A stretch of 32,000 bases of DNA from Pseudoalteromonas tetraodonis (GCF_002310835.1 NZ_CP011041.1:180001-212000), one strand, 5' to 3'. Numbered from the stretch's first letter, positions 29,148 through 29,700 are shown. Program-made: numbers and translations. Notes: generated by a model from the sequence alone, not told the origin.

Positions 29148-29700
29148 CTGACCGCTGACCGCTGACCGCTGACCGCTGACCGCTGACCGCTGACCGCTGA
29201 CCGCTGACCGCTGACCGCTGACCGCTGACCGCTGACCGCTGACCGCTGACCGCTGACCGCTGACCGCTGACCGCTGACCGCTGACCGCTGACCGCTGACC
29301 GCTGACCGCTGACCGCTGACCGCTGACCGCTGACCGCTGACCGCTGACCGCTGACCGCTGACCGCTGACCGCTGACCGCTGACCGCTGACCGCTGACCGC
29401 TGACCGCTGACCGCTGACCGCTGACCGCTGACCGCTGACCGCTGACCGCTGACCGCTGACCGCTGACCGCTGACCGCTGACCGCTGACCGCTGACCGCTG
29501 ACCGCTGACCGCTGACCGCTGACCGCTGACCGCTGACCGCTGACCGCTGACCGCTGACCGCTGACCGCTGACCGCTGACCGCTGACCGCTGACCGCTGAC
29601 CGCTGACCGCTGACCGCTGACCGCTGACCGCTGACCGCTGACCGCTGACCGCTGACCGCTGACCGCTGACCGCTGACCGCTGACCGCTGACCGCTGACCG
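29148..29700. repeat. Perfect heptanucleotide tandem repeat (CTGACCG) x 79
   Basis: Read directly from the sequence. The 553 bp equals exactly 79 units with no substitution or indel, plus a partial CT at 29701-29702. It fills the gap between convergent genes. Confidence 0.99.

Follow-up and report, generated by a model that had tools for sequence, protein, structure and literature searches.

Introduction

Tandemly repeated heptamers are present at many intergenic loci of heterocystous cyanobacteria as the short tandemly repeated repetitive (STRR) sequences, and in Haemophilus influenzae the copy number of a 7-bp repeat upstream of hmw1A and hmw2A reportedly grades expression of these genes. 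More generally, the part of the survey by Mrazek (2007) that is relayed in PMC4679880 and PMC4692102 identifies heptamers as the most over-represented class of long simple sequence repeats (SSRs) in prokaryotes and proposes polymerase slippage as their origin. The GGGAATC and GGGGA(C/T)T repeats of Xanthomonas and Nostoc described by Rehm et al. (2015) are intergenic, lie 0-50 bp from a stop codon, carry the G-richer sequence on the coding strand, and occupy the same gene pair in related species at varying lengths and next to metabolic genes (PMC4692102). Here we analyse a comparable element, an array of the heptamer CTGACCG at positions 29148-29702 of a 32,000-nucleotide stretch of Pseudoalteromonas DNA (hereafter the window), located between converging genes for a class-V aminotransferase and a 2-oxoglutarate (2OG)-Fe(II) oxygenase. 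The array is a real, fast-changing simple repeat, and the only role it demonstrably has is that of a length-variable non-coding spacer. It is probably a slippage-driven heptanucleotide variable-number tandem repeat (VNTR) in dispensable DNA, transcribed as the 3' untranslated region (UTR) of the oxygenase gene.

Results

A perfect heptanucleotide array fills the spacer

The array consists of 79 perfect units and a partial unit, CT. Tandem Repeats Finder (TRF) reported a period of 7, 79.3 copies, 100% matches, 0 indels and a score of 1110. A two-unit CTGACCG pattern with at most two mismatches gave 78 matches, against 0.05 expected in shuffled sequence, and none outside the array in the 32 kb window. 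Five of the seven bases of the unit are G or C, and the bin 29001-30000 has a GC fraction of 0.57, against about 0.41 around it. The array with its partial CT abuts the TTA at 29703-29705, so that the oxygenase stop codon TAA is 2 nt from the last full unit. On the other side, the 72 nt between the aminotransferase stop codon and the first unit consist of AG and ten decayed heptads in phase with the main array, with 33/65 self-matches at lag 7 (16.7 +/- 3.4 in shuffles, p<5e-5); TRF detects the first 4.3 units of this tract. The first-pass annotation, made from the sequence alone, had described an uninterrupted GC-rich array of 79 units in AT-leaning DNA, ending 2 nt from the oxygenase stop codon and preceded by decayed heptads, so that the whole spacer is heptad repeat. 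The repeat search, the open reading frame (ORF) list and the lag-7 test bear out each of these points.

The two strands of the array differ in their coding properties, as that annotation had also observed. The minus strand reads (CGGTCAG)n in the sense orientation of the oxygenase gene and is stop-free in all frames (an RSAVSGQ cycle), whereas the plus strand has a TGA in every frame. A 193-aa minus-strand ORF of (SGQRSAV)n accordingly runs through the array and matches Pfam PF21300 (LbR_Ice_bind, Grass antifreeze beta roll) with an E-value of 1.8e-31. That it encodes an ice-binding-like beta-roll protein is extremely improbable, even though all frames are open and gene callers predict such ORFs elsewhere. 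The match is false, as both aligned sequences are periodic and of low complexity; its ATG is a codon of a different frame within the oxygenase gene; and the entry and exit frames shift with copy number because 7 is not divisible by 3. Moreover, the ORF is absent from alleles of 5-14 units, and an exact protein look-up found no gene with that product on record.

The array is predicted to be free of secondary structure. RNA from both strands folds worse than shuffled sequence (z +2.0 for the plus strand and +4.0 for the minus strand), and a scan for sigma-70 promoters and terminators found no terminator-like site in the spacer (29076-29702). An intrinsic terminator was therefore rejected, in agreement with the earlier view that the array is not of the hairpin type. 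The same scan found no sigma-70 match inside the spacer, where a TTGACA-N16-TAATTT motif falls under its -10 threshold. An Rfam 15 scan of 28800-30000 gave no family at gathering score; the sole match, P26 in the left flank, is at chance level (17.7 bits against 36 needed, E 0.83). Further candidate classes were discarded: a clustered regularly interspaced short palindromic repeat (CRISPR) array, whose repeats of 23-50 nt alternate with unique spacers, since the 7-mers are contiguous without spacers; a repetitive extragenic palindrome (REP), bacterial interspersed mosaic element (BIME) or miniature inverted-repeat transposable element (MITE), since these have imperfect palindromes that can form hairpins, while the CTGACCG unit lacks a palindrome and a predicted stable fold; and a phage feature, the viral contig scan having given 12 scattered matches.

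Array length differs between near-identical strains

The window organism is a Pseudoalteromonas of the SM9913 group, and both flanking proteins are unchanged on chromosome I of Pseudoalteromonas sp. SM9913 and on many other contigs. Different array alleles are nevertheless counted in the assemblies of strains that share 99.9-100% identity over 8.4 kb of flanking sequence. The flanks in GCA_030159815.1 are 100.000% identical to those of the window over 6148 nt on the left and 2298 nt on the right, and the spacer there holds 14 units. SM9913 differs from the window by one flanking base and has 12 units, and a strain with 8 units has one flank mismatch over the same 6148 + 2298 nt. Identical flanks are also present in GCA_007991235.1. 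The same spacer holds 5, 8, 9 or 10 units in other contigs, and every length difference is a multiple of 7. At 79 perfect copies, the array in the window is longer than every other copy retrieved.

Because these are assembly counts, it has to be considered that the repeat is real but that the number 79 arose in assembly, or that small counts are collapsed and the variation overstated. Several short-read contigs break inside the array, and in several short-read alleles the repeat, at 37, 58 or 100 nt, slightly exceeds a k value in common use for assembly. Repeats equal to k or k+1 are found at contig ends (77 nt in L087 and 127 nt in L051), and an internal array of the same P. prydzensis assembly, L132, measures 128 nt, or k+1; many short-read counts are thus probably lower bounds. 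The allele L004, whose flanks are identical to those of the window yet which has 14 units, also fits such an error. However, a perfect repeat of 553 bp is beyond a short-read assembler, so the window most likely derives from long reads, a good basis for sizing such tracts, and arrays of about 52, 33 and 24 units in other megabase contigs make 79 units plausible. In addition, alleles that are marked by variant units or spanned by k-mers truly differ. The finished SM9913 genome has 12 units, of which unit 10 (L001) is the variant CTGATCG; L011 has 9 units with two variants (units 3 and 7); L008 has 9 units in a 65-nt repeat inside a k127 contig, a reliable count; and the SaAl2-like lineage has 7 units in one member and 5 in another (L262-L264; L262 vs L264), with identical flanking proteins. 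We trust these alleles in particular, and they establish real length variation among strains with almost no substitutions; an assembly origin of the count, or of the variation, is unlikely. The variant units of SM9913 and L011 are C-to-T changes (CTGATCG and CTGACTG), and CTGATCG creates a GATC site in the array.

Gain, loss and homogenization at the same spacer across the genus

We extended the comparison to the wider genus by retrieving the spacer through homologues of the aminotransferase. The array is present in four lineages: the SM9913 group, P. prydzensis (at least 17 units, the contig ending within the array), the SaAl2-like lineage and P. shioyasakiensis. In the last (L270), (CTTACCG)7 is followed by a single CTGACCG beside the stop codon. 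This sweep of CTTACCG through the array is the signature of concerted evolution and shows that the array has been homogenized. The array is absent from a relative, L271 (97% protein identity), which has a canonical bidirectional terminator instead; from GB56, again with a canonical terminator; from P. mariniglutinosa, with a hairpin in the spacer; and from BSi20495, where the spacer is only 20 nt long and has no terminator. Such a patchy species distribution shows rapid gain and loss, and the spacer is fully replaced between close relatives. Whether or not a species has the array, its oxygenase is 234 aa long with an identical or almost identical C-terminus (AEQIYGTPQS or GQPQS), which indicates that the array starts right after the ancestral stop codon and that the gene has not been eroded.

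These comparisons uphold the proposal of the first-pass annotation that the tract is a hypervariable strain marker shaped by slippage or homogenization: near-identical strains differ, CTTACCG has replaced the unit in one species, and contigs break in the array. Its alternative of a contingency locus is not supported in the classical sense, in which a repeat within a coding sequence or between promoter elements switches a gene, usually a surface or restriction gene, on and off, given that the tract is non-coding, follows a stop codon, leaves the oxygenase at 234 aa regardless of the array, and has ordinary metabolic genes as neighbours; phase variation was rejected for these reasons.

CTGACCG arrays and other heptamers elsewhere

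The first-pass annotation had advised searching related genomes for (CTGACCG)n. We made two scans, one for three units in one genome per species and one for six units in metagenomes. The three-unit scan returned at least 120 loci in many phyla, and the majority of those listed are short and come from high-GC genomes or filamentous cyanobacteria; Moorena, Okeania and Oscillatoria are among the hosts. At least five distinct loci are in Pseudoalteromonas. Besides the present spacer they include L132 in P. prydzensis, L059/L087 in P. rhizosphaerae and strain 9NakV-03, and L064 in strain M30B23, and the matches listed in the six-unit scan added orthologues of L064 and a locus of Pseudoalteromonas sp. 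DL-6.

Heptamers other than CTGACCG also form arrays. In 225 kb of low-GC loci TRF found (TCGCTTA)22, (GGGCAAT)12.6, (GTTGTCA)10 and (TTAGCTA)11, and no array of period 5, 6, 8 or 9 that reached 4 copies. This matches the preference for period 7 that is reported for prokaryotes at large (Mrazek 2007, as relayed in PMC4679880 and PMC4692102). Heptamer arrays of varied unit therefore seem to be a genus-wide trait, and the many units and loci show a property of the genome rather than of the locus. The (TCGCTTA)22 array lies at 1506-1659 of L267 (P. phenolica, CP173161.1), upstream of a 2OG-Fe_Oxy_2 gene and amid the same neighbouring genes, in a species without the CTGACCG array.

A search of protein collections with the translated repeat retrieved 32 ORFs called through such arrays, among them one of about 24 units in strain DL-6 and two of about 52 and 33 units on a single 3.29-Mb contig. 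Nearly all public ORFs of this kind are labelled PF21300, a systematic false annotation. The 3.29-Mb contig, ctg14418l, is of high GC content and contains at least two long perfect arrays, those of about 52 and 33 units (L272 3262-3660; P0121, P0128, P0124, P0138). They share a leader of about 60 nt with TTGACA 32 nt before the array, the leader reading into the CGGTCAG orientation, and leader and array together look like a repeated module.

Several loci have a more complex organization. In a Blastocatellia metagenome-assembled genome (MAG; L052 2292-2518), each of two converging genes has an array of its own behind it in sense-CGGTCAG orientation, of 6 and 8 units, and the two arrays form an inverted pair with decayed heptads between. 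In Moorena producens 3L (L061 6164-6534), three CTGACCG units and one variant unit recur together with a 28-nt period. Higher-order structure is seen in L061, L121, L245 and L208, and some of these loci interleave CGGTCAG with TGGTCAG or CAGTCAG.

Flanking genes and neighbouring features

The features of the locus are collected in Table 1. The left flanking protein matches Pfam Aminotran_5 at 2e-69, and its Pseudoalteromonas homologues are named cysteine desulfurase-like protein.

Table 1. Features at and around the CTGACCG array, in window coordinates
Feature	Position	Strand	Basis
Class-V aminotransferase / cysteine desulfurase-like gene, 410 aa, TGA at 29073-29075	27843-29075	+	ORF list, Pfam
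Weak long-range hairpin of aminotransferase gene end and decayed heptads	29066-29134	+	RNA fold
Decayed heptad tract, AG and ten heptads, consensus CTGTCAG	29076-29147		Lag-7 test, TRF
Sigma-70-like motif reading into array: TTGACA 29120-29125, 16 nt, TAATTT 29142-29147	29120-29147	+	Sequence reading
Spurious 193-aa ORF, (SGQRSAV)n, ATG in oxygenase gene in another frame	29141-29722	-	ORF list
Main CTGACCG array, 79 perfect units and partial CT	29148-29702		Sequence reading, TRF, pattern search
2OG-Fe(II) oxygenase gene (2OG-FeII_Oxy_3), 234 aa, TAA at 29703-29705	29703-30407	-	ORF list, Pfam

The ten decayed heptads read CTGTCAG, CTATAAG, CCGTCAG, CTTTCAG, TTTAATG, CAAATAC, TTGACAG, TAGTCAG, CAGTTAG and TTAATTT, and in this tract the window and the SaAl2-like allele differ by an indel of 14 nt, or two heptads. 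The consensus CTGTCAG is near-palindromic, matching the main unit at 5/7 positions directly and at 6/7 inverted, so that the orientation of the tract is ambiguous; its phase continuity with the main array favours the direct orientation. A Pho box was considered for CTGTCAG and rejected, the spacing being 7 or 14 nt and not 11. The hairpin formed by the aminotransferase gene end and the decayed heptads reaches -21.3 kcal/mol (z -1.7 on the plus strand and -2.6 on the minus strand) and is not a canonical terminator.

Placement of the arrays relative to genes and to a TTGACA box

Position counts were made over all retrieved loci after removal of near-duplicates; these cross-taxon statistics rest on the loci among the matches listed in the two scans, with ORFs called crudely. 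At 11/55 low-GC and 24/87 high-GC loci the end of a long ORF falls within 10 nt of an array, while at random positions in the same loci this is the case in 1.2% and 2.7%, respectively. Converging low-GC cases clearly favour the CGGTCAG-sense side. An overall orientation-specific abutment of stop codons was not significant (11/55 vs 5/55) and is reversed in high-GC DNA, where spurious ORFs end at the TGA of the array, and we claim the abutment as such and no orientation for it. The genes that abut arrays have unrelated functions. At the Pseudoalteromonas loci L132 and L059, the array lies between a gene stop codon, 3 and 7 nt away respectively, and a strong bidirectional terminator hairpin (z -9.3/-7.5 at L132 and -3.5/-4.6 at L059). 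It is therefore inside the 3' UTR of the gene, in the same CGGTCAG sense as in the window. A replication-strand bias was not supported, the orientation relative to local GC skew being 55:41, and tandem in-frame stops before arrays were dropped as a sign of selection against read-through, being present only at L132 and L033 (about 2/35).

TTGACA is the top hexamer at its distance upstream of the arrays. It occurs 28-36 nt upstream of the first CTGACCG in 12/151 independent flanks, against 10/9480 control 80-mers taken from the same loci (odds ratio 82, p 8e-17), 1/9966 at other offsets of the same flanks and 3/147 for the reverse orientation. In most cases an xAxxxT box comes 16-18 nt after the hexamer and leaves 2-6 nt to the array, and a sigma-70-like score of at least 9 is reached at 11.3% of arrays vs 0.2% of controls. 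The loci concerned are not homologous to one another, and at most of them the distance is not divisible by 7, which indicates that those boxes are not decayed units. In three high-GC metagenome loci (L226, L165 and L255), TTGACA, a -10-like CATGCT and the array are followed by an ATG 8-19 nt past the last unit, and the array makes up nearly the whole 5' leader of the gene.

Discussion

Our analyses indicate that the CTGACCG tract is probably a slippage-driven VNTR that has filled the only dispensable DNA between two converging genes. The purity of the units and the length steps of 7n point to slippage. The array would grow, shrink and homogenize through slipped-strand mispairing or unequal exchange among identical 7-bp units, and these changes would be confined to the spacer. 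Its existence calls for no dedicated sequence-specific function. Transcription through the array would add 553 nt to the oxygenase 3' UTR, and the array, predicted to be free of secondary structure, keeps the converging genes about 630 bp apart. It may be tolerated because the array contains neither starts nor stops on the strand that is sense for the abutting gene, while the opposite strand cannot be translated because of a TGA in every frame. Contact with a stop codon on one side and a promoter-like motif or terminator on the other would then reflect an array that fills all non-essential spacer.

Several observations weigh against so neutral an account. Gene ends are flush with 20-28% of the arrays, compared with 1-3% of controls, a non-random placement. 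Upstream genes run in the same direction as the CTGACCG strand in 72 cases vs 26, or about 3:1 (23 vs 7 in low-GC DNA). TTGACA is enriched upstream of arrays, as described above. The array-bearing alleles of the present spacer do not have the canonical terminator found in array-free alleles. The recurrence of CTGACCG at several loci and in many phyla is not what random seeding would obviously produce, although this is in part a matter of ascertainment because only CTGACCG was searched for. The flush ends, the TTGACA box, the co-direction and the missing terminator could reflect function rather than tolerance. In particular, the flush gene ends and the TTGACA about 31 nt upstream hint at a putative transcriptional role, and these positional regularities go somewhat beyond those reported in PMC4692102 and PMC4679880.

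One such function would be that of a one-way Rho-dependent terminator or insulator, acting from the aminotransferase side and replacing a lost intrinsic terminator. An insulator or roadblock was among the roles that the first-pass annotation had put forward, and the contrast between array-free spacers with a canonical terminator and array-bearing ones lacking it lends the putative insulator or terminator some indirect support. (CUGACCG)n would stop antisense read-through into the oxygenase gene, whereas the oxygenase transcript, (CGGUCAG)n with more G than C, would pass. A Rho loading site takes some 60-80 nt or more of RNA that is neither translated nor structured and in which C exceeds G. 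The plus-strand RNA of the array is 43% C and 29% G, is less structured than shuffles and has UGA in all frames, and typical arrays, of 42-130 nt, are of the size of such a site. The co-direction of upstream genes, the spacer without a terminator-like site, the weak folding of the flanks in 3/3 array-bearing alleles tested and the canonical bidirectional terminators of the array-free L271 and L266 spacers all agree with this proposal. However, 29% G is high compared with known Rho loading sites, the arrays at L132 and L059 are already preceded by a strong intrinsic terminator that makes another one needless, and BSi20495 copes with a 20-nt spacer and no terminator. The orientation statistics, moreover, derive from ORF calls that are noisy in high-GC DNA. 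We regard Rho-dependent termination, the main rival to slippage in dispensable DNA, as possible but rather unlikely.

Another possibility would be that the TTGACA-N16-TAATTT motif is a promoter that fires at the first unit and yields an untranslatable (CUGACCG)n RNA, which would pair with the oxygenase 3' UTR and act as an antisense rheostat, with copy number setting the amount of antisense or double-stranded RNA. The first base of the array directly follows TAATTT, and TTGACA is kept in all four array-bearing species, including P. prydzensis, the SaAl2-like lineage and P. shioyasakiensis, while the rest of the flank diverges. The enrichment of the hexamer at non-homologous loci, the excess of high sigma-70-like scores and the long-read MAG in which at least two arrays stand behind a shared leader of about 60 nt containing TTGACA are in line with such a role. 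On the other hand, the TTGACA of the window and that of P. prydzensis keep exactly to the heptad phase (28 and 35 nt) and may be decayed units; at 3/6, the -10 box is weak; the motif at L132 overlaps the terminator hairpin and its T-tract; and only about 8-17% of arrays have the motif at all. We therefore treat the box in the window as a lead rather than a finding, and a promoter-driven rheostat at this locus is unlikely.

A broader version of these ideas, which we advance tentatively and at long odds, is that arrays of CTGACCG, and perhaps of CTGA-core heptamers, are cross-phylum transcribed modules. Transcription would start from a sigma-70 promoter at the first unit and yield an untranslatable, structure-free RNA, the array being flush with a start codon or with the stop codon of a converging gene. 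The copy number would be a heritable, fast-mutating dial on Rho-dependent attenuation or on antisense or double-stranded RNA over the 3' end of the neighbour, in the window the 2OG oxygenase.

The array may also be considered at the level of the DNA, as a tandem protein-binding array or as a recombination hotspot or rearrangement boundary. Three units make 21 bp, or two helical turns, and close relatives differ by replacement of the entire spacer. At the Pseudoalteromonas locus beside a YgjP-like gene, L064 shares the gene-side flank with its orthologues L166 and L222 but has unrelated sequence on the other side, which places that array at a boundary of rearrangement or replacement. However, no candidate binding protein is encoded nearby, the neighbouring genes are functionally unrelated, the orientation shows no bias relative to GC skew, and the heptamer-repeat regions of Xanthomonas are reported to be more conserved than controls (PMC4692102). 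A DNA-level element is thus very unlikely, and slippage in dispensable spacer remains the reading we prefer.

The locus has practical value as a strain marker for the SM9913 group. It is also a warning for assembly and annotation, as short-read assemblies break or collapse such arrays and gene callers emit a fake antifreeze-like protein from them. Moreover, culturable bacteria offer here a natural allelic series at one place, with 0 units and a terminator, 5-14 units, or 79 units, which makes the effect of an array on transcription, and the reason for the period of 7, testable. Further tests of the cross-taxon regularities, namely the flush gene ends and the -35 box that lies about 31 nt upstream, would cost little.

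To place the array among known systems, we compared it with the described heptamer repeats. Descriptions of the CTGACCG unit or its rotations, and of tandem or heptanucleotide repeats of Pseudoalteromonas, were not found in the searchable literature, and there the unit, the genus, the length and the series of terminator-or-array alleles at one spacer appear to be undescribed. In H. influenzae, a host-adapted pathogen, the hmw1A/hmw2A tract precedes an adhesin gene, whereas the CTGACCG array lies downstream of a metabolic gene. The STRR sequences are likewise heptamers, but their units and their taxon differ; with a Pseudoalteromonas host and the unit CTGACCG, the array falls outside that group in the strict sense. 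The first-pass annotation knew of no described function or family for a CTGACCG array in gammaproteobacteria. Heptamer arrays as such have been described there, with the unit GGGAATC in Xanthomonas (PMC4692102) and with TAACTGA in marine Beggiatoaceae (PMC4679880), and these are the described repeats nearest to the present array. TAACTGA, which is also found in cyanobacteria and Bacteroidetes (MacGregor 2015, PMC4679880), contains the same CTGA core. Like CTGACCG, it has stops in all frames one way and is open the other, crosses phyla, often ends contigs and is accompanied by other heptamers. It differs in that it is mostly present in 2-6 copies just upstream of start codons, while CTGACCG here reaches 79 copies after a stop codon and between converging genes. 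The GGGAATC repeats resemble CTGACCG in their closeness to stop codons, strand, kept place with variable length and metabolic neighbours; their units form G-quadruplexes, whereas CTGACCG has neither G runs nor predicted structure. With the long SSRs of prokaryotes, as far as the survey of Mrazek (2007) is relayed in the later papers, the array shares perfect head-to-tail units, an intergenic position, the favoured period of 7 and a strain-variable copy number. Given that its head-to-tail units far exceed chance and that its copy number varies among close strains, as in long SSRs and VNTRs with their units of 1-11 nt, the CTGACCG array is a member of the known prokaryotic class of heptanucleotide simple repeats.

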